A stretch of DNA of 63,406 nucleotides, counting the filler. It is 13 parts of 13 records of this genome, joined end to end, with 100 filler letters (N's around TTAATTAATTAA, not from the genome) between each part and the next. Parts side by side here need not be neighbours in the genome. Positions count along the whole stretch, not along the records: positions 47,861 to 53,239 come from SRR7504441_24202; 12 more parts are not named here. One strand, 5' to 3'. A model generated the notes under the pieces. The model saw only the letters and a list, made by a program, of their open reading frames with translations. It was not told where the DNA came from and made no database searches. The position numbers and the translations under genes were made by a program. This document shows, piece after piece, positions 4,805-53,339 of the stretch (position 1 is its first letter; every line of letters begins with the position of its first letter).

Positions 4805-4904
4805 NNNNNNNNNNNNNNNNNNNNNNNNNNNNNNNNNNNNNNNNNNNNTTAATTAATTAANNNNNNNNNNNNNNNNNNNNNNNNNNNNNNNNNNNNNNNN
4901 NNNN
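4805..4904. other. Artificial contig-joining spacer (first of 12)
   Basis: 44 N + TTAATTAATTAA (stops in all six frames) + 44 N. Identical spacers at 9181, 16965, 22374, 25968, 30069, 36218, 40004, 43523, 47761, 53240 and 57724. Adjacency across these spacers is not biological. Confidence 0.98.
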
Positions 4905-23733: not shown

Positions 23734-23763
23734 TGCACCGATCAAAGAATCCGTTACTCATCA

Positions 23764-24912
23764 ATGGGCTTCTTCGCTCTGAGCTTCGGCTGGCTCATGC
23801 TGGGCGTCGCTGCCTCGACCAAGAACACGCCCAAGTGCAGCATCGCACCGGGCTACAACGGCGTCGTGCTGAACGTGAGCGACGGCGTGTACGACCGTTG
23901 CGCGTCGTTGGTGCTCCCCTCCAGCATGTCCGCTCCGGCGGCCGGGCTGCCCTTTCTCTTGTTCCACCACGGCGCAGGCGGCAGTGGCGCCTCTTGCGGG
24001 GGCGGGGCGCGAGACGACTTCGGGCTTTCTCTGGGCGACTACGCGGACAAGTATGGGTTCGGGCTAGTCTGCGGGGAGGCGGTGCAGGACCTGTTCGGAC
24101 ACGGCGGCCAGTGGCAGATTCCGGAGATCATGACCAACCGCACCGGCACGCCCTGCAGCGAGAGCGACTCGGTGGAGATTGCTTACCTGAAGAACGTGAT
24201 CGGGGCGCTCGGCTCGGTGGACGCGGCGGGCCGGAAGGTGGACACGTCACGCATCCTGAGCAGCGGCTGCAGCATGGGCTCGGCGTTCAGTGAGTACAGC
24301 GCGGCCTGCATGCACCAGCTCTACGGCGCCGAGCGGGTGCCGGCCTTCGCGACGCACTCGACCGGGCTCAAGATCAAGGGCGATGGAAACATCTTTCCGC
24401 CGGATAACTACAACACTTCCACCACCTGGGGCGAGTGCGACCGATGCCAGTACTTTCCTGTCGTGCCCAGAGCGCACGGCCCGAAGGCGTGCCTGAACGA
24501 CAACAAGCAGGATCCGAGTCCGAGTGACCCATTCTTCTACCGATCGACTGTCCAGATGGCACAGGTCTACGGAGCCTTGCCCGGAAACAGAGTCGAAACC
24601 TTTTACGGCAGCGGCCACCACTGCCAGATCCACTCGTTTTGGGACATTGCCAACTGCCTCGATGACGGCACCGGGTGGCTGACTCAGAACAAGAGCAAGC
24701 CAGTTGGCCCCAGCCCTGGCCCACCCCCAGGCCCCAGCCCGCCACCAAAGGCCTGCCAGGAGGCCACGGCCAAAGCGTGTGCGGCTGCCAAGAGCTCCGG
24801 CGGCAAGGCTGCGTGCAAGGCCTGCCTCACCCGCAACTTTGGGCCGCTCAGCGGTCCTTGCAAGGCGTGGGGTCCTTTCCCTAAGCTCGTGCAGTGGTAC
24901 TGCAACGCTTAG
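23764..24912 (+). CDS. Secreted alpha/beta-hydrolase esterase (LpqC / PHB-depolymerase / CE1-like)
   Basis: Signal peptide, oxyanion motif LLFHHGAGGSG, VDTSRILSSGCSMGS (GxSxG), Pro-rich linker and Cys-rich tail. Intronless. Confidence 0.7.
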   Translation: MGFFALSFGWLMLGVAASTKNTPKCSIAPGYNGVVLNVSDGVYDRCASLVLPSSMSAPAAGLPFLLFHHGAGGSGASCGGGARDDFGLSLGDYADKYGFGLVCGEAVQDLFGHGGQWQIPEIMTNRTGTPCSESDSVEIAYLKNVIGALGSVDAAGRKVDTSRILSSGCSMGSAFSEYSAACMHQLYGAERVPAFATHSTGLKIKGDGNIFPPDNYNTSTTWGECDRCQYFPVVPRAHGPKACLNDNKQDPSPSDPFFYRSTVQMAQVYGALPGNRVETFYGSGHHCQIHSFWDIANCLDDGTGWLTQNKSKPVGPSPGPPPGPSPPPKACQEATAKACAAAKSSGGKAACKACLTRNFGPLSGPCKAWGPFPKLVQWYCNA

Positions 24913-25668: not shown

Positions 25669-25727
25669 CGCGCCTGTCTGCGTGCGAGCGGTGCCAATTT
25701 AATAACGGCAAAACGGCTTGTCAAAAA

Positions 25728-25967
25728 ATGCAGGCCGGTGCGGCGCCAGTGTGGGGCGGCGCCCCAGCTGGGGGTGTCGGACCGTATCTTCGTGGTGCAC
25801 TGCTGCTGGTGCTGCTGTGCGCCGCGCTGGCCGGCGACCCGTGCGAGGGCGGGGGGCACTCGCAGTCGCTGTGGGAGGGGTTCGGCTGGCGGGACGGGCT
25901 CGGGCTCGGACTGGCGGCGGTGGGGCTGATGGTGGCCGCGGGGGGCGGGATCGGGGGCGGCGGGATC
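25728..25967 (+). CDS. TauE/SafE (TSUP) sulfite-exporter family protein, N-terminal fragment
   Basis: Hydrophobic helix ending AAGGGIGGGGI, typical of eukaryotic TSUP proteins. Truncated by the contig end. Confidence 0.7.
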
Positions 25968-32383: not shown

Positions 32384-32542
32384 CGTCTGTGACGATGGAA
32401 ACCCGCCGGCTGGTACAAGGGGCGACGGCGACGGCGCAGCCTCCTCTCCTAGCCCGGCTTGAAAAAAGTCCGTTGCCGGGCCGCGGCCGTGCACTGGCAC
32501 TGTGCGCTGCTGTCTGCTGAAGTGTAGGGGACTAGGGGTGAG

Positions 32543-35500
32543 ATGATGCCGCACCACACGCTGGCAGCGGCTCTGATGCTCCTGGCGGCAGGCCGGGCCG
32601 CGGCCAGCCCATGCCTCGGGGAGTTCGTGCTGGAGCCTGGCACAGGCGAGTGCGTTCTTGCGGCCAACAATGGCGACCCCGACGAGCCGCTGGCCTCGCA
32701 CCCGCGCTGCCCCGGCAGCTTCGCCTGTCCGGCCGGAGGGTGCGCCGACAGCCCCGCCGAGTACGCCCGGTGCGTCGGGGCCGGTTTCGTACCCGAGCGC
32801 ACGGCCCTGGGCGCGGAGGAGTCCGAGCTTCTGGACGTGCATATTGTAGCTCACACCCACGACGATACCGGCTACCTCGAGACAGTCGATGAGTATTACA
32901 ACGACAAAGTGGCGTCAATTCTGACCACTGTGACCGCCGAGCTGCAGAAAAACCCGCTCCGCAGGTTCACCTACGTTGAGACCGCCTTTCTGGCCAAGTG
33001 GTGGTCCGAGCAGTCGAACAGCACCAAGCAGGCCTTCCGCGGGCTGCTGGAGTCAGGTCAGATGGATTTCAGCAACGGAGGCTGGTGCATGCCCGACGAG
33101 GGCGCCCCGAGCTACCAAGACATGCTGGCCAATATGCAGAAAGGGCTCCGGTTTATTGTGGAACAGTTCGGACCGGAGTTCAGGCCGCGGGTTGCGTGGA
33201 GTATTGATCCTTTCGGGCACTCGTCCAGCTATGCTGTGCTCAACCGAATGTTTGGGTTTGATTTCTTTGTGGTCGGCCGGATCGACTTCCAGGAGAAGGC
33301 GGCCCGATTTGCGAGCAAGACTATGGAAACTGTGTGGAGGCCGGCCGAGGATAGCACAGGCTCGGAGATACTGACCCACGTGCTGGACCCGATACAGTTT
33401 TATAGTTACCCGCCCGGGTTTGGTTTTGAAGGCGACGCGCGCACCTGGGTCACCAGCGGGAATGTTGCGAGCCGCGCGAAGGATTTTGCGGACTTTATTC
33501 ACACCAAGGCTGCTGGGTATGCGACCAACTCTTTGCTCGTGCCGTTCGGCTCAGACTTTCAATATGCAAACGCCAGTATCAACTATGACAATATGGACCG
33601 CTTGATGGCGTTCATGAATACGCCAGAGAATCAAGCCAAGTTTGGGATGAAATTGCAATACTCGACTCCTACTCGCTACATGGAGGCGCTGAAGAGCAAG
33701 CAGGCGACTTGGCCTGTCAAGACCGACGACTTTGAGAGCTACGCCATCGGTCCGGATCAGTTCCTGGTCGGGTTCTACTCCAGCCGTCCGGACTACAAGG
33801 GCTTCATCCGACTCGCTTCGAGCCAGCTCCGGGCGGCTACTGTGGCGCTCACTGGGGCTGTGTTGCTCGATAGCTCAGGCGCACTCAGGTTGGCTGATGA
33901 ACTGGCTGCACTAGACCTGCAGCGGGACTATCTCGGGGTGGCGCAGCATCACGACGCGATCACCTCCTCGCAGCGGCGGCATGTGCATCGCGATTACATC
34001 AAACAACTTTCAATGGGTCAGGTTGCAGTGGATGGGTCGATCACCAGGACAGTGGCTGCAGCAATTGCCTCGGGAGCGGCGCCAAGATTGGTGACTTGCC
34101 CCTACTTGAACGAGAGCTCTTGCCCCTTTGCCGAGAACACCACTAGTAAAGGCCCCAATGCCAGCCTTGCTGTGGTTCTCCAGAATCCAACCGCCTTGCA
34201 AATGGAGGCTGTCACAATCAGAGTGCCCGTGGGTAGCCCAGCAGTGGTGGTCGACGGACAAGGAAATCCCGTGCCATCTCAGAACTTTCCGCCCTGGCCC
34301 ACTTCTCCGTTTGTGCACAACCAGACGCACAAAGCCCCGGCGGCTACTGTGGCGTTCCTCGCTCAAGTGCCTGCGTTGGGCTCGAGCACATATTTTGTCA
34401 AGCAAGCAGCCAATCCACCAACGCCAATTGTCCAGCCCAACCAGGGCCCAATTGTGCTGGACAACGGCATCATTCGTGCCGGGTTTGACCCATCTGGATT
34501 GTTGGCGTACATCCAGAATCTCCAGTACAACGTGACCGTGCTCTGCAATCAATCCATCAAGTACTATCGCGCCAGCACCGGTAAAAATGACTCCACCAAT
34601 CCATATTTCAGTGCTGGTGCTCAAGGCTCAGGCAATTACATCTTTCAGCCCGTTGGCTCGACTACGTATCCCTTCACAGCCTCTGGCAAGCCAGCATCAG
34701 TCGCCTATCTGAAAAGCGATGTTGTGTCGGAGGTACGGCTTGTGTGGGTAGCAGAGAGCATAGAGCAAGTGTACAGGCTTGCGAAAGGCTCCGACGTTCT
34801 CGAAGTCGAGTACCGCATCGGGCCGATCGACACCTCGGATGGTGTAGGCAAGGAGGTGATCTCGCTCTGGAGCACCGACATCGATTCTGGCGAAAAGTGG
34901 ACTTCGGACGTGAACGGCATGCTGCTCAAGACGCGCACACGCAACTCGCGGGGGCCACTGTATGTGCCCAACGGCCCCGAATATTTCAATCAGACAGACC
35001 CGGTTGCAGGCAACTATTTCGCTGTCAACACACAGGCTTATCTGACTGATGGCAAGCGCCGTTTGACGATACTGACTGATCGTTCCCAGGGAGGGACATC
35101 GCTGCAGTCTGGTGACCTGGAGCTAATGCTTCACCGGAGGCTCGTCAAGGGCTGCAGATGGGGGATGTGCGAACCCGGGCCCGACGGTAAGATGGAGGCG
35201 GCTGGGCTGAATGACGTGCTGGGGGCTCAAGTTGTGATCAAGCACTGGATCTCTGTGGACGTGCAGGCTCAAGATGGGAGCAGCCCAGCACTCACCAGAC
35301 AGCGGGCGAGGCAGCTCAACTACCCGCCGTCAGTCCTGCTGGGAGATGCCGGCTCGTCAGAGAAGTGGCCGCACAGCACTGCGACCCGACCGCTGTTGCA
35401 AGCACTGCCTCAGAACGTGGAGCTCACAACCTTCCAGCTGATGAGCGACCAAGAGGCCTTGTTGCGGCTCACACACATCCATCAGGCGAATGAGCACCCG

Positions 35501-35767
35501 ACACTCTCTCAGCCGGTGACGGTGGACATCTGCGCTGTATTCGGCTCAAAGCTGTGCTCGCGGCTCCGGAGCATGGTTGAGATGACCGCGGCTGGTGATG
35601 TACCGCTGGACACCATCACACGGCACAAGTGGAGTGCTGCCGCAGACGATGCACACAGGCCTGATGTGCCAACAACTAGAACAGCCAGCAATACGTCCAT
35701 CTCGTTGCACCCGGGAGCAATTCGCACCTTCCAGCTACTGCTCGCACCTATGCTACATGCACATTAG
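32543..35767 (+). CDS. MAN2B1: Lysosomal-type alpha-mannosidase, glycoside hydrolase family 38
   Basis: Signal peptide, VHIVAHTHDDTGYLETVDEYY, RRFTYVE, NGGWCMPDE, AWSIDPFGHS, QHHDAIT, DRSQGG and LELMLHRR. Intronless, 1074 aa. Confidence 0.95.
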   Translation: MMPHHTLAAALMLLAAGRAAASPCLGEFVLEPGTGECVLAANNGDPDEPLASHPRCPGSFACPAGGCADSPAEYARCVGAGFVPERTALGAEESELLDVHIVAHTHDDTGYLETVDEYYNDKVASILTTVTAELQKNPLRRFTYVETAFLAKWWSEQSNSTKQAFRGLLESGQMDFSNGGWCMPDEGAPSYQDMLANMQKGLRFIVEQFGPEFRPRVAWSIDPFGHSSSYAVLNRMFGFDFFVVGRIDFQEKAARFASKTMETVWRPAEDSTGSEILTHVLDPIQFYSYPPGFGFEGDARTWVTSGNVASRAKDFADFIHTKAAGYATNSLLVPFGSDFQYANASINYDNMDRLMAFMNTPENQAKFGMKLQYSTPTRYMEALKSKQATWPVKTDDFESYAIGPDQFLVGFYSSRPDYKGFIRLASSQLRAATVALTGAVLLDSSGALRLADELAALDLQRDYLGVAQHHDAITSSQRRHVHRDYIKQLSMGQVAVDGSITRTVAAAIASGAAPRLVTCPYLNESSCPFAENTTSKGPNASLAVVLQNPTALQMEAVTIRVPVGSPAVVVDGQGNPVPSQNFPPWPTSPFVHNQTHKAPAATVAFLAQVPALGSSTYFVKQAANPPTPIVQPNQGPIVLDNGIIRAGFDPSGLLAYIQNLQYNVTVLCNQSIKYYRASTGKNDSTNPYFSAGAQGSGNYIFQPVGSTTYPFTASGKPASVAYLKSDVVSEVRLVWVAESIEQVYRLAKGSDVLEVEYRIGPIDTSDGVGKEVISLWSTDIDSGEKWTSDVNGMLLKTRTRNSRGPLYVPNGPEYFNQTDPVAGNYFAVNTQAYLTDGKRRLTILTDRSQGGTSLQSGDLELMLHRRLVKGCRWGMCEPGPDGKMEAAGLNDVLGAQVVIKHWISVDVQAQDGSSPALTRQRARQLNYPPSVLLGDAGSSEKWPHSTATRPLLQALPQNVELTTFQLMSDQEALLRLTHIHQANEHPTLSQPVTVDICAVFGSKLCSRLRSMVEMTAAGDVPLDTITRHKWSAAADDAHRPDVPTTRTASNTSISLHPGAIRTFQLLLAPMLHAH

Positions 35768-47860: not shown

Positions 47861-49617
47861 CCTGGCAGTATCGGCTCAACTGCAGCCTTCATCCGTCACA
47901 CCCCAGTGGTGTGATCGCCCTCGGTGGCCGAGTCGTCCGGCTCATTGTCGTTGTAACTGTCGTTGTATGTACAGCTCAACCCAAAGTCGCCTACCGCAAA
48001 CAGTTAATTATTTGTTGGCAACATCAAGCAGTCTGCCTCTGACCTATTTTTAATTGCCCCTGGGCAAAGAACACATTGCCCGGCTTAAGATCCCTGCCCC
48101 CGCATCCGCCATCCCCATCCCCCCCGGTCGCCTATGGATGAGTCCCCGGGAATGAATGTGGCTTAGCCCTCGAGCCAGCTGGCCCAGAAAACCTCGCACC
48201 TGCGCCATCTCAGAGCAACGGCCCGGCGATCAGGCGAGCCGTGGGCAAGTCGGCCTTGGGGCTGTCCGCTCGCCGGCTGATCCAATCGGCGAGTGTGCTC
48301 TCCTCGCACCTGCCGATAACCCCGTCGCGATGACAATATTTCAACCGCCGTACAGCTGCATCTGAATGAAAAGGCAGCCAATCGTAGCCGGCCGTGTAGC
48401 CCACTGTTCCTGCCGTTATTCCCAAATTAGAAACATCTCAATATTCCCTAATTAGGCACCAGCGACAGCTCCGAGCCCGAGAACGAGCCGTCCGACGAGC
48501 CCAGCAGCACTATCGGTGCCACAGAGCTCCCACTGGCCTCGAGCCTCAGCCGGCCGACTCCGGGCAGCCGCACCCGCTGTCTGTTGAAGCTCCGCGCGAG
48601 TGCGATAGAAAGCTCGGTGGGCCACTCTCCACCTGTCACACGCCGTGTTGAGTGTCGTGAGCCCGAGGGAAGGCACCCACGAGCTGTAGTAACGAACGCA
48701 GTTCGGGTGCTCGAGCGCCGCCAGCGCGCGCACCTCGCGCCGGATTAAGTCCACCTGAATCCCAACCGACTCTGCCGTTGGCAGCCTGGTGGGCACCGAG
48801 TCGGCGGCAGTGATCGGAATCATTTTGATTGCGTACATCCCGCCATCCAATCGATGCCTGGACACCCTCCCCCCCCCCTCCGGTGTGGGGGCACCTGGCG
48901 CGATACACTGTGCCAAAACCGCCCCGGCCGATCTCTTCAAACCGTTCAAATTCAAACAAATATCTGCGGGTAACTGTCACGCCGAACCGGGTTACAACAG
49001 CCACCGCGACTCATCGCGACGAAGAGAAAGCTCCTGGCCTGCAAACAGTGAGCGCCAACGGAATTACAACGGACACCGCTGAACGGGACGATGGCGGCGC
49101 TGGGATTTCCGTTGAACGCCGCGTCTGTAAGTCGCTCCAAGTTGGCAAAGTCGAGCCGCCGCGAGTACTCGAGCGCGTCCGGAGTGACCTGCCAACGGCA
49201 ATCCAACGGAATTACAACGGCATTCACCAGGTTGGTGTCGAGCAGGAAGCGCTGGAGCTGCTCCGGAGGGGAGACGCTGCCAGCGGGGGTGGGGCGGCGC
49301 CGGGGCGGCGGGCCCACCTGTTCCGGAGCTGGGCGTTGGACCAGATGAGGTACCTGGGCCCAACGGCTGAGTAACGGCAATTAACGGACTGTCACATGAT
49401 GAACAGCTGCCGGTTCCGGTCGGCCTGTTCCGTTGGGCTGTCCTGCGGGTCCTGCGGGTGGAGCATTTCGCCCAGCTGTGCGCCCGGCGGTCATTTAACG
49501 GACAAAGCAACGGACAGTCGCCTGCGCCACCGAGTCCATGATGGCGGCCCGGCGCGGCTGGCCCAGCAGCGCCGCCAGCATCCGGCCCGCGTCCTCCCCC
49601 GCCGCCCCTGCCGGCAT
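47861..49617 (-). CDS. eIF2-alpha kinase (EIF2AK/HRI-GCN2-like), 3'-truncated
   Basis: Spliced sequence reads SRYLFEFERFEEIGRGGFGTVYRARHRLDGGMYAIK...REVRALAALEHPNCVRYYSSWVE...LFIQMQLCEESTLADWI...IHRDLKPGNVF...KIGDFGLS...HTTG. About 15 micro-introns. Start codon is 49617 or 49649. Confidence 0.88.
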
Positions 49618-50106
49618 CACCCGGCTCTCCGGTCACATTGCCAGCCCATTTCCCCGATGACAGCAAAATTTCCGTTAAGCGCCGTTGAGCTCGGCGGCAC
49701 GCAGCGAAGGCGAAGGCGGTCTAGACGACGATGAGGTGCGGACCGGGCCGGGGGGCGGGGGGAGGAGCCGGGGGGTCAGCGGGGAGCCGGCACCTGCCCG
49801 CTCGTTCTGGCGCGACGTAACCGACACGCCGTACAACGACTCAACTCCCGCCGGGACGGTGGCCCGCCGGCCGCACCGGGCAACCCGACCGGCGGCCCAG
49901 GTGTTCGCCCGCGGTTTCTGGCGGAACGTGCTGTCGCCGTTCATCCAAGGTCCGTTGGAATGTCCGTTACCGTTACTCGGCCCGGGCGCAGGGATCTGCC
50001 TGGGGATCGGCCAGTATGGGGCCAAGATGGTCTTCGACGAGTGGTCGGCCGCACGGGCCGCCCGGTGGCCGTTGGAATGTCCGTTACCGTTGAGCCCCGG
50101 GGGCAG
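48964..50106. repeat. Family of mutually similar CCGTT-repeat micro-introns in two divergent genes
   Basis: Minus-strand introns 49039-49076, 49189-49227, 49354-49395, 49476-49521 (and degenerate 48964-49004), plus plus-strand introns 49950-49991 and 50065-50106. Exact repeats: 18 bp at 49055 and 49203, and 23 bp at 49952 and 50069. Confidence 0.85.
49650..49730. promoter_or_regulatory. Putative bidirectional promoter with two CCGTT (AACGG) motifs
   Basis: About 80-110 bp between the divergent starts. CCGTT occurs at 49672 and 49682. Confidence 0.5.
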
Positions 50107-50219
50107 GCGGGCGCTGGCCAAGGCCGAGGTCAGCTCGGTCAGCTCGGGCGGGCGGTGCGCCCGGGCGGCGGGCCGGGCCGATGGGAGGCAGGTCGGACTC
50201 GGGACCGAGGGAGGCTTGA
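49731..50219 (+). CDS. Small single-TM protein (about 93 aa), Mim1/Tom13-like
   Basis: Introns 49736-49779, 49859-49900, 49950-49991, 50065-50106 and 50155-50191 give MSGEPAPARSFW...GFWRNVLSPFIQGICLGIGQYGAKMVFDEW...REA*. Confidence 0.6.
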
Positions 50220-50556
50220 GCCGGGAGGTAGGCCGGGCCGGCTAGGCTCAATACACCAGCCTGTTGGCTGCTCAACGTGCGCTGCGTCGGCGCGTGCTGG
50301 CGGTTTTTGCCGTTTGCGCGAGGCTTTAATTAATCGCCGTTCGCCTGATTTTGTTCGTCTGTTGATCCTTTTAGAAGCCCCGTAGCGTATGCGCGCCCCC
50401 GGATTCGTACCGGGCATTGACATGCGCCGAGCTACATGCGGCTGTACAATACTTTATCTATCTAGTAACATCATGTCTGATCAACTTTGAACGTTGTTGT
50501 AGCTCACATTGAACTGCAAGGTCCGTTGGCGATCTCACCACCCACCGGGCGGTACG

Positions 50557-53076
50557 ATGGATCGTCTGCCTGAGCCGTTGCTCTCGGACTGGATCGCGGC
50601 CCGGCTGGTCACCGCCCCGCGCAGCCTGGCCGACGCCGCCCTGGCCAGCCGCCGGCTCCGCGCCGCAGTCACCGCCGCGCGAGCCGACCTGTCGGCCGTG
50701 CTTTGCCCCCAGCTCCAGTGCGACGACTGCACCGGGCCGGCCGCAGGGCGCTGCCTGGTCCAGCTGTGCTGCGCCGGGTGCGAGCAGGGCGGCATGGTTC
50801 GGTTGTGCGGGTGGACGATACCCTACCGCCGCTGGAGGCGAGTGCCCGGTAGGGATCGGCCAGTTGCGATCCTCGCCGAGGTGAGCATCCGCCCCGAGGA
50901 GCGGGCAGAGACGGCGCTCCGCCTGATATCAGCCCGTGCCCCGGTAGGGTACCATTCCACGGACTGCCTGCCCGAGCCATGGTGCGATTACGACCAGCTC
51001 CCTCAAGTGACCGCTCTGATGATGGCGGCGTACAGTGGCTACACAGACATCGTCCAGGCGTTGGCAGCCGTCACGGCCCCCAAGGCCGCTCTAGAGCTCG
51101 GGGCCGGCCAATGCGGGACAGCACTCGGGATAGCGGCGAACGAGGGCCACGCGGGTGCCGTCCAGGCGCTGGCGCAGGCTCGGGCGGGTCTTGACGCCAC
51201 GGACGCCGACGGGGTCACCCCATTGATCGCTGCTGCTTCTTCTCCCCCTCCATGCGGCGGTCATCTTCGTGCGATCGAGGTACTGATCGAGGCTGGTGCC
51301 GGGTTGGACCTGCAGGACGCGTGCGGGGAGTCGGCCCTCGCTACTGCGGCCACGGCGGGGAGGGTAGATATGGTGCGAGCACTGGCCAGCGCAGGGGCAG
51401 CGCTAGACCTTAGGAATAATTCCGAGGATTCTGTGGAATACGGATTCACCGCGCTGATGTCTGCCGCCCGAAGCGGCCAGGCCGCGGTTGTGAGGGAACT
51501 GGCGGCTGCCAATGCGGACCTGGACCTGCAGAGTTGGGTTAGAGCCGGCGAGCCGGGTGACACGGCGTTGATGATAGCTGCGTACAATTCCGGGCTTGTT
51601 GATTCAGGTGCCACAGTGTACATCTCCGGGCTTGTTGAAAATGCTCTGGCGGTGGCCACAGCGCTGGTTGATTCAGGCGCGGCGCTGGATGTTCGAAATA
51701 GCGTGAGTGGCCAGACGGCATTGCTGCTGGCAGCGTCGGGGGGTCGAATGAACGAGGACAGAAGAGCGCTGATTGATCTGCTTGTGGATTCGGGAGCAGA
51801 TCTGGACCTTCAGGACAACGACGGGCAGTCGGCACTGGTGGCTGCCACAGCGAGGGGGCACAGCGAGGTGGCTCACCGATTGGTCCGAGCGGGCGCCGAC
51901 CCCAATCTCCGAGGGCAGAGGGGTATATCCGCTCTCATGAACACAGCTCAACGAGGAGACGCTGGGTTGGTAACTGCTTTGATAACCGCAGGAGCCGACA
52001 TGAATCTTCAGAGCCAAGATGGGAACACGGCGCTGCTTTTTGCCACCACCCTCGGGCACACCGAGGCCGCCGAGCGCCTGATTGCGGCTGGGGCTGAGCT
52101 CGAGAGAACGAATGGGATGGGTAGGCGGGCACTCCACAACGCGGCTAGGCGGGGAGCAGCGCCGATTGCTGAGGCGCTAATCAAGGCAAACGCTGGGCTC
52201 AACGGACGAGCGGAGGACGGCGAGACGGCGCTGATCTATGCAGCCCAGGAGGGGCACTGCGGGATTGTAGAGGCGTTGGTCGGGGCGAGCGCGGCGCTGG
52301 AATTGAAAGACCACCGGGAGAGAACAGCGCTAGCCTGGGCTGTACGCAACTGCCGGTTGTTGGCGGTAAAAGCGCTGGTGGCCGCCGGTGCCGCGCTGGA
52401 TGTGCGGATTTCGAGTCAGTTGGTTGATGCGAGAGATGAGAAGATTACAATGCTGATGTTTGCTTCATTTCAGGGCCACCACAAGATAGTGGAGTGGTTG
52501 GTGTCTGCCAGTGCTGCGTTGGATGAACTGAGTTCGCACGGCTCCGCGCTCACGCTGGCAACACGTGAGGGCCATGTAGGCGTGGTTCAGACGCTGGTGG
52601 ATGCCAGGGCTGCGTTGGACCTGCAGGATGAGTTGGGCAACACCGCACTGACGGTGGCAGCTGAATCGGGCCGGGTCCAGATGGCAACGGTGCTGATCGA
52701 GGCGGGGGCGTGCCTGGACCGCCAGGACGAAGAGCTGGGCTGGAGTGCGCTGATGAAGGCAGCTGTTTTGGGCCGGATCGAGATGGCCACAGCGTTGATT
52801 GGAGGCAGGGCAGGGCTCGACCTGAAGAGTCACGAAGGCTTCACTGCGCTGATACTTGCAGCTCGTGCCAACCGCATGGAGATGGTAAGGGTGCTGGTAG
52901 AAGCTGGGGCTGGGCTGGACCTCCAGGACGAAAGGGGGCAGACAGCACTGATCTGGGCAGCAAGGAACGGTCACAGTGCGATGGTGGAGGCGCTTATTGA
53001 TGCGGGTGCGGGTCTAGACGTTCGAGATCGGAATGGAGAAAACTATTTGATGGTAGACAGTCCCATCTGGTTCTAG
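50557..53076 (+). CDS. F-box-like N-terminus + long ankyrin-repeat protein
   Basis: MDRLPEPLLSDWIAARL...LADAALASRRLR, then roughly 20 repeats of the GxTALxxAAxxGHxxxVxxLxxAGAxLDLQD type. Intronless. Confidence 0.9.
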   Translation: MDRLPEPLLSDWIAARLVTAPRSLADAALASRRLRAAVTAARADLSAVLCPQLQCDDCTGPAAGRCLVQLCCAGCEQGGMVRLCGWTIPYRRWRRVPGRDRPVAILAEVSIRPEERAETALRLISARAPVGYHSTDCLPEPWCDYDQLPQVTALMMAAYSGYTDIVQALAAVTAPKAALELGAGQCGTALGIAANEGHAGAVQALAQARAGLDATDADGVTPLIAAASSPPPCGGHLRAIEVLIEAGAGLDLQDACGESALATAATAGRVDMVRALASAGAALDLRNNSEDSVEYGFTALMSAARSGQAAVVRELAAANADLDLQSWVRAGEPGDTALMIAAYNSGLVDSGATVYISGLVENALAVATALVDSGAALDVRNSVSGQTALLLAASGGRMNEDRRALIDLLVDSGADLDLQDNDGQSALVAATARGHSEVAHRLVRAGADPNLRGQRGISALMNTAQRGDAGLVTALITAGADMNLQSQDGNTALLFATTLGHTEAAERLIAAGAELERTNGMGRRALHNAARRGAAPIAEALIKANAGLNGRAEDGETALIYAAQEGHCGIVEALVGASAALELKDHRERTALAWAVRNCRLLAVKALVAAGAALDVRISSQLVDARDEKITMLMFASFQGHHKIVEWLVSASAALDELSSHGSALTLATREGHVGVVQTLVDARAALDLQDELGNTALTVAAESGRVQMATVLIEAGACLDRQDEELGWSALMKAAVLGRIEMATALIGGRAGLDLKSHEGFTALILAARANRMEMVRVLVEAGAGLDLQDERGQTALIWAARNGHSAMVEALIDAGAGLDVRDRNGENYLMVDSPIWF

Positions 53077-53339
53077 GTGACTGAATCGTGGGTTTATCGT
53101 CGGGTTTGACCCGTGCGACCGTTGAGTAAATTGATTGTGGTTAACGCGAACAATGCCGGCCAGTTGTGCACAACCGCGTGATCTAACTAAGTCTTTAGAT
53201 GGCACACCGGGTCGTAACCTGCGTCTCTCTGATTGCGTCNNNNNNNNNNNNNNNNNNNNNNNNNNNNNNNNNNNNNNNNNNNNTTAATTAATTAANNNNN
53301 NNNNNNNNNNNNNNNNNNNNNNNNNNNNNNNNNNNNNNN

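Follow-up and report, generated by a model that had tools for sequence, protein, structure and literature searches.

A family of six tiny introns, each about 40 nucleotides (nt) long and built on two or three copies of the pentamer CCGTT, flanks a very short bidirectional promoter in an assembled stretch of 63,406 nt (hereafter the window). The host contig, SRR7504441_24202, occupies positions 47861-53239 and is referred to as the locus contig. The introns K1, K2, K4 and K5 interrupt the 5′ part of a minus-strand gene for an eIF2-alpha-kinase-like protein, and the introns P1 and P2 interrupt a small divergent partner gene. A seventh copy of the same element, which is not an intron, lies in the gap between the two start codons. 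Judged by their alignment, the seven copies are paralogues, and gene models combined with homologue alignments show the focal segments to be genuine spliceosomal introns of about 40 nt. These observations suggest that tiny introns were copied locally and that they may double as protein-binding sites near the promoter.

A cluster of CCGTT repeats in the introns of two divergent genes

The window joins 13 contigs of 3.4-7.7 kb through linkers of the form N44-TTAATTAATTAA-N44, found at 4805-4904 and at 11 further sites. Contigs that are adjacent in the window are not linked in the genome, and any apparent feature across a linker is an artefact. Statements on the uniqueness of the motif sample, besides the locus contig, only 58 kb of unlinked contigs, and all conclusions about the family come from one locus in a fragmentary bin.

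An earlier sequence-only reading had counted 23 CCGTT/AACGG pentamers in 48942-50091, where two or three were expected. The re-count gives exactly 23, against 2.1 expected per 1150 nt, and the Poisson probability of this count at the background rate outside the cluster is 1.5e-16. The whole window holds 135 such pentamers, compared with 96.6 ± 10.1 (largest 122) over 100 shuffles. In each of the other 12 contigs the densest 1150-nt window contains 2-6 copies, and first-order Markov simulations of all contigs (n = 300) peaked at 10 copies per 1150-nt window as opposed to the 23 of the real sequence. Expressed as density, the locus contig carries 6.3 copies per kb and the other contigs 0.7-2.9 per kb. 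Chance clustering, or an artefact of assembly or annotation, could draw on the fragmentary nature of the bin only; set against the Poisson probability, the simulated maximum and the homologues that back the intron boundaries, it is very nearly negligible as an explanation.

Sixteen of the copies lie within the six introns (two or three in each; Table 1), and each of the 16 reads in the sense direction of its host gene (binomial P = 3e-5), as the earlier reading had stated. Inside the introns, neighbouring copies are 11, 11, 11, 10, 11, 12, 12, 6, 12 and 6 nt apart and the promoter pair is 10 nt apart. The 10-12 nt phasing noticed earlier is therefore found in 9 of 11 neighbour spacings.

The comparison with other introns relied on a gene finder based on a 3-periodic Markov coding model, which was trained on six Pfam-supported long open reading frames (ORFs) of the window and took its splice-site weights from a first pass. 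It predicted 107 very short and uniform introns, 15 on the locus contig and 92 on the other contigs, with the consensus G/GTGC...GGCAG/G (slashes mark the junctions). Tiny introns are the norm in this genome, since the modal length of these 107 predictions is 40 nt. A scan for introns with at least two sense copies of CCGTT, proposed in the earlier reading and run here on the introns of the window, returned 6 of 16 on the locus contig (P1 being added to the predictions) and 0 of 92 elsewhere (Fisher P = 4e-6). Among the 15 predictions on the locus contig, five carry 2-3 sense copies and ten are free of the motif; on the other contigs 91 of 92 lack a sense copy and one has a single copy. Altogether, 16 CCGTT fall in the six focal introns and one in the 102 others. 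The array is unique within the 63 kb sampled. The claim that no other intron of the window holds such repeats is thus borne out, although the term "locus-confined" extends only as far as the 58 kb of unlinked contigs.

One layout shared by six introns and a promoter-gap copy

In a multiple alignment the six introns and the promoter-gap copy fit a single layout, spacers included: GT, 0-6 nt, CCGTT, a spacer like GnAATnT, CCGTTR, about 6 nt, CCGTT and GG..CAG. P1 and P2 possess an identical 23-mer that takes in two spacers, which upholds the match reported earlier for the two 42-nt partner introns, and K4 and K5 possess an identical 18-mer. K1, in its GT-AG reading, agrees with P1 at 17 of 20 bases counted from the GT, and K2 and P1 have CCGTTACTC[A/G]GCC in common. 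An all-pairs comparison of 110 introns found more than 13 shared nucleotides only in P1/P2 and K4/K5. Similarity is greatest between neighbours (115-151 nt apart), and the exons that flank the six introns are unrelated to one another. Because the non-motif spacers are shared as well as the motif, common descent by copying or gene conversion is indicated, and we infer an origin by local copying or by short-tract gene conversion. The sequence-only reading had offered local propagation or inter-intron conversion as one of three alternatives, and the common spacers and the one layout support it directly.

The orientation of the copies flips at the promoter, as had been noticed before. Splice polarity suffices as the cause: the mirror image arises because each copy must keep its GT..AG polarity in divergent host genes.

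The same identities bear on a different origin, in which independent old introns each gained CCGTTR sites under selection for transcription-factor binding. Such convergence would be in keeping with a motif that is a Myb core and with its 10-12 nt phasing, yet it predicts neither the long identical stretches that run through spacers (the 23-mer, the 18-mer and CCGTTACTC[A/G]GCC) nor the GT-to-AG layout, and it appears quite improbable.

Two larger-scale origins were considered and rejected. An inverted segmental duplication of the two 5′ ends does not fit, as the similarity is confined to the intron copies and to G-rich low-complexity sequence and the homologues of the exons differ; the arm-to-arm global alignment scores 120.5, compared with 70.9 ± 10.5 (maximum 103.5) for mononucleotide shuffles. 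A transposon with subterminal repeats was set aside because conserved host exons sit between the copies. A role of CCGTTA as branch site was also dropped, the scan for YTNAY candidates (25 of 98 ordinary and 2 of 6 focal introns) being uninformative. In GC content and folding energy the six introns do not depart from the range of the other introns.

A further CCGTT-like unit occurs on the exon side. Immediately before the donors of K5, P1 and K2, the exons contain C[CT]GTTCA[TG]C (49082-49086, 49937-49941 and 49403-49411, respectively), within residues conserved in the homologues (F-I of both proteins). This extra unit may reflect an insertion-site preference or chance.

Table 1. Features of the divergent kinase and partner genes, in window positions
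Feature	Coordinates	Strand	Length	Remarks
eIF2-alpha-kinase-like gene, 5′ part	47861..49617	-		ATG 49617-49615; cut by contig end at 47861
Intron K1	49476..49515	-	40 nt	GT-AG; 2 sense CCGTT
Intron K2	49354..49395	-	42 nt	3 sense CCGTT; multiple of three; in-frame TGA at start if retained
Intron K3	49277..49317	-	41 nt	GC-rich; without CCGTT; colinear with L001
Intron K4	49189..49227	-	39 nt	3 sense CCGTT; multiple of three; stop-free; gene-finder prediction
Intron K5	49039..49076	-	38 nt	2 sense CCGTT and a degenerate third unit, CTGTT
Motif-free kinase intron	49004-48964	-	41 nt	
Motif-free kinase intron	48894-48858	-	37 nt	
Motif-free kinase intron	48676-48633	-	44 nt	
Motif-free kinase intron	48353-48310	-	44 nt	
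Motif-free intron, kinase insert	48625-48581	-		less certain
Motif-free intron, kinase insert	48573-48533	-		less certain
Motif-free intron, kinase insert	48459-48410	-		less certain
Gap between divergent start codons	49618..49731	.	114 nt	shared promoter and 5′ untranslated region
Seventh family copy, non-intronic	~49668-49703	+		CCGTTA/CCGTTG pair at 49672 and 49682
Partner gene	49732..50243	+		small conserved protein, ~100 residues; no known family
Partner intron without CCGTT	49860..49901	+	42 nt	GT-AG; multiple of three; stop-free
Intron P1	49950..49991	+	42 nt	3 sense CCGTT; multiple of three; stop-free
Intron P2	50065..50106	+	42 nt	3 sense CCGTT; multiple of three; stop-free; gene-finder prediction

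Homologues delimit the introns of the kinase gene

The kinase model was built by hand from reading frames, third-position GC content and conserved motifs. Once spliced, it stays open in a single frame that begins at the ATG and extends through the kinase N-lobe. The gene finder independently arrived at the same model, placing the start at 49617 and, between there and 48310, 12 introns whose lengths range from 37 to 50 nt. A metagenome scan with a 60-residue kinase exon led to L001, a contig of 2161 nt with a single, intron-free ORF of 639 residues. Its protein aligns colinearly with the spliced model (105 of 293 columns identical), without insertions at K2, K3, K4, K5 or the next two intron sites. 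The L001 protein matches Pfam Pkinase at 4.1e-46, and EIF2AK3 and EIF2AK1 are the named proteins closest to it; by way of this predicted orthologue, the window gene is assigned as eIF2-alpha-kinase-like. The earlier description of an eIF2-alpha kinase and a partner gene at a bidirectional promoter stands; the kinase gene is on the minus strand, the small partner is divergent, and their start codons are 114 nt apart. L001 could represent a transcript, or its source could be a relative poor in introns. Being intron-free and possibly a transcript, it is therefore silent on the age of the introns. The same exon found no match in a search in "longer" mode. A second metagenome match (L002, 1-1603) was rejected as an orthologue: it resembles a bacterial Ser/Thr kinase locus, and only 29 residues of the exon were matched.

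The introns differ in what delimits them. K2 and K4 are multiples of three, so the frame is uninformative, and they are shown to be intronic because L001 is colinear there: its protein continues without a gap at K2 and lacks a 13-residue insertion at K4. K3 is required for a change of frame from 0 to 2. K5 is backed by frame logic and, jointly with the next intron, by restoration of the S-R-Y-L kinase motif. Removal of the four motif-free introns from 49004 to 48310 likewise restores conserved eIF2-alpha-kinase motifs and colinearity with L001. In the two genes the motif is absent from K3, from two partner introns and from at least seven of the later kinase introns.

K1 lies upstream of homologue coverage, where frame and third-codon-position GC content are the evidence that points to a probable intron. 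Its acceptor can be paired with either of two donors, giving the GT-AG intron of Table 1 or a GC-AG intron of 46 nt (49521-49476), and both readings shift the frame by 1 for the join of exon 1 to exon 2. The sequence-only reading had proposed the GC-AG form, which is compatible with the frame; the GT-AG form at 49515-49476 is the better one and is picked by the gene finder, at the modal length of 40 nt. With K1 readable in either way, GT..AG boundaries are found in all six focal introns, in agreement with introns of the U2 type.

The partner gene and its consecutive 42-nt introns

An exhaustive HMMER search of the unspliced partner ORF against 1.84 billion representatives retrieved only two proteins, P0121 (E = 8.5e-15) and P0122 (E = 1.2e-11). 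Pfam gave no match for the partner ORF, P0121 or P0122, and a protein atlas gave no usable match for the partner ORF. Both relatives carry the source tag "merc", which we take to denote a transcript-derived catalogue; if so, they would be spliced products. They show 14-residue gaps exactly at 49860-49901, at P1 and at P2. Together with the colinearity of L001 at the kinase sites, these gaps confirm the earlier proposal that the segments are introns. The gene finder missed P1, which it read through as in-frame sequence. The M-S-S start of the two homologues points weakly to a partner start at 49732 and a first intron of 44 nt at 49737-49780. Between 49860 and 50106 the partner gene has three consecutive introns of 42 nt, all multiples of three and free of stops, and retention would add 14 residues each.

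The next gene downstream (50503-53073) is a single long ORF for an ankyrin-repeat protein of 857 residues (Ank_2 at 1.9e-94). A sense CCGTTG stands 34 nt upstream of its start codon. An Rfam search of the locus contig, whose GC content is 0.63, gave no match.

The shared promoter gap and other short divergent gaps

The copy in the gap between the kinase and partner start codons has no GT donor and is apparently no intron; its CCGTTR pair is antisense to the kinase. Comparable motifs occur in two other short divergent gaps of the window. The pair at 23734-23765 has an inter-ATG gap of about 32 nt that contains CCGTTACTC at 23751, and the pair at 25671-25728 has a gap of about 58 nt with AACGG twice, at 25704 and 25712. 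In this second gene pair the minus-strand member is PRA1-like by eye, and the plus-strand member starts with a signal-peptide-like N-terminus. P2 and the focal gap both contain the 9-mer CCGTTGAGC, as does the sequence ahead of the start (39964) of an ankyrin gene that lies on another contig.

Counts upstream of other genes are in line with a promoter role of the motif in a weak, only suggestive way. The 100 nt upstream of 15 vetted non-focal gene starts hold four sense copies and one antisense copy, with 1.3 expected per strand (P = 0.046). A looser count over 120 nt upstream of 26 non-focal predicted starts yields 11 copies in 2890 nt (P = 0.025), a figure that counts divergent gaps twice and takes in doubtful gene starts. 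A general promoter enrichment was rejected, there being no intergenic excess and the stricter upstream count being weak.

Possible constraint on the motif and a proposed binding array

The base that follows the motif is a purine (CCGTTR, the complement of YAACGG) in 18 of 18 intronic and promoter copies, compared with 60 of 112 outside the locus. Among the three units inside one element the spacers differ and CCGTT is retained. Both features, like the 10-12 nt phasing and the uneven identity of P1 and P2, suggest constraint on the CCGTTR units. That identity is 23 of 23 in the 5′ part and clearly lower in the 3′ part, which argues against a simple neutral duplication. The MSA element, to which 3R-Myb proteins bind, is described as having AACGG for its core (PMC5405339), and in Trichomonas a Myb-like protein is reported to bind a core promoter element that resembles a Myb recognition element (MRE) (PMC4450334). 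At the locus the full MSA consensus YCYAACGGYYA occurs once exactly (50066-50076, in P2) and twice with one mismatch. The distance from each of the six introns to the start codon of its host gene falls between 100 and 580 nt. Service as a promoter-proximal array bound at the DNA level appears to be their most plausible, if unproven, function.

A joint account can be proposed on these grounds. An element of about 40 nt would have been copied locally, or by short-tract gene conversion, within 1.1 kb. Its CCGTTR units, mostly one helical turn apart, would be putative sites for a Myb/SANT-type DNA-binding protein, and the introns would add further putative sites within transcribed sequence, near a bidirectional promoter that is itself very short. 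The mode of action would resemble intron-mediated enhancement in plants. This combination of local copying or conversion with a Myb-type array that enhances expression from within introns is held tentatively, at a little under an even chance. It retains part of the earlier suggestion of a Myb array in the introns: the purine kept in 18 of 18 copies, the 10-12 nt phasing, the non-intronic pair and the two other divergent gaps speak for it, and the MSA count and the strand bias against it.

Several observations weigh against this account. No target-site duplications or terminal inverted repeats were seen at the six junctions, and we know of no mechanism that copies a 40-nt intron into nearby exons. 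The third units of K1 and K5 have decayed. The conservation of CCGTT over the spacers is partly an ascertainment effect, the motif having been chosen because it is conserved, and the paralogous copies are not independent, which weakens the argument from constraint. K3 and the two partner introns nearest to the promoter lack the motif. Intergenic DNA is not enriched overall (2.0 copies per kb, compared with 1.8 in coding sequence and 1.6 in introns), nor is the plant MSA consensus, allowing one mismatch at most, enriched in the window (12 matches, 9.3 expected). A strict sense orientation, 16 of 16, is atypical for Myb sites; the 3R-MYB paper reports MSA cores without a strand difference (PMC5405339).

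Some of these points lend themselves to a neutral account, in which an introner-like element or conversion tract spread locally and CCGTT merely represents its inherited internal repeats, devoid of host function. Copies that have spacers and layout in common, with nearest neighbours the most similar, are what such spreading would leave, splice polarity accounts for their orientation, and the decayed third units and the lack of general intergenic enrichment fit as well. Harder to reconcile with it are the retention of CCGTT across three units while the spacers diverged, the purine kept in every family copy but in little more than half of those elsewhere, and the uneven identity of P1 and P2. 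One copy moreover lies in a promoter gap, and two other short divergent gaps hold similar motifs. The neutral account is possible but on balance doubtful.

The strand bias could instead reflect an RNA-level code, where CCGUU repeats bind a factor that controls splicing or retention and so co-regulates the kinase and its neighbour. All 16 intronic copies are on the sense strand as this would demand, and the earlier claim that several introns are multiples of three and stop-free holds for K4, P1 and P2 (3 of 6), in which retention would keep the frame. It fails for K2, a multiple of three whose retention leads to a stop codon, and retention of K1 or K5 shifts the frame. The motif is not required for splicing, because most introns of about 40 nt do without it, ten of the 15 on the locus contig and 91 of 92 on the others lacking a sense copy. 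The strand bias itself follows from splice polarity if the copies are paralogous, and the promoter pair is antisense to the kinase. Among the three alternatives of the sequence-only reading the splicing code is the weakest, and as an explanation it is unlikely.

A bolder variant of the joint account is that a "micro-introner" of about 40 nt arose from a CCGTTR-repeat unit whose usual role in this lineage would be that of an orientation-dependent Myb-type promoter element. The unit would bear, or readily gain, GT..AG ends and would have seeded introns in both genes beside the bidirectional promoter. It is distinctly unlikely. Were it true, intron gain and cis-regulatory gain would be one event, and some tiny introns would have been born from regulatory DNA and retained as an extension of the promoter into the transcribed region.

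Relation to introners, intron enhancers and binding-site clusters

Introners, or introner-like elements, are described from Micromonas, Aureococcus, fungi and many aquatic protists (PMC9860276, PMC4540971, PMC3879977). Like them, the focal introns appear similar from end to end, lie in the sense orientation throughout, occur in unrelated genes and have dissimilar flanking exons. In contrast to them, the focal family is only about 40 nt long, has six intronic copies gathered in 1.1 kb around a single promoter, and is not dispersed (0 of 92 other predicted introns in the 58 kb). Nor were target-site duplications or terminal inverted repeats seen, features present in some introner families only, and the element is built from a pentamer in 11-nt phase. 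A published screen for introners is set out as requiring BLAST E values of at most 1e-5 between introns with 20 nt of flanks, at least four members in non-paralogous genes and similarity that extends to both ends of the intron (PMC9860276). Introns as short as about 40 nt could probably not reach this threshold.

Plant intron-mediated enhancement appears to be the closest working analogue of the focal array. In Arabidopsis, a short repeated motif in promoter-proximal introns is reported to raise expression (PMC6760150), and the motif associated with the effect in plants is given as TTNGATYTG (PMC6760150, bioRxiv 10.1101/269852). The focal array has a different motif, in introns a tenth as long, and its placement around a bidirectional promoter is new.

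Myb recognition elements, namely MSA and the Trichomonas vaginalis M3/M3BP pair, resemble the putative focal sites in the YAACGG core kept in 18 of 18 copies and in the presence of copies in very short promoter gaps. They are unlike them in that the focal sites are mostly intronic, obey a strict strand bias and show no enrichment of the full MSA consensus. Homotypic clusters of transcription-factor sites in enhancers hold many copies of a short site within a few hundred bases. The focal locus has such numerous copies of a short site, in helical phase; unlike those clusters, it is split by coding exons into blocks, each of them an intron that has splice sites of its own.

Other contents of the window

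Intron density per gene is very uneven in the window, from none in ORFs of more than 1000 residues to 12 in 1.4 kb elsewhere. The contig at 26068-30068, with a GC content of 0.51 as opposed to 0.57-0.65 for the other contigs, codes for a portion of a modular polyketide synthase that includes KS, ACP and FAD/NAD-binding domains; it may be a different region of the genome or a binning contaminant. An alpha-mannosidase ORF (GH38) at 32528-35764 has its best matches, at 57-62% identity, among metagenome proteins and an entry of EukProt. That entry, labelled COSAG02 (61% identity), is its closest named relative; in two papers the label denotes a single-cell assembly of a picozoan. The bin may be picozoan or related, an assignment drawn from this one protein on a different contig from the locus.

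Significance

It has yet to be settled how new introns originate and why tiny ones persist in compact genomes. The introners known to date exceed these in length, are scattered through the genome and often resemble transposons. A 40-nt family restricted to both sides of a single promoter would suggest local intron gain or homogenisation without a transposon. Similarity-based screens for introners may miss families as short as this one. Where divergent start codons are 32-114 nt apart, introns could be the only free DNA for regulatory sites, and regulated expression would be plausible for a stress-responsive eIF2-alpha kinase. The CCGTT family is a variant of introner-like and intron-enhancer themes, in which tiny introns probably copied within one locus may also serve the promoter that they surround.

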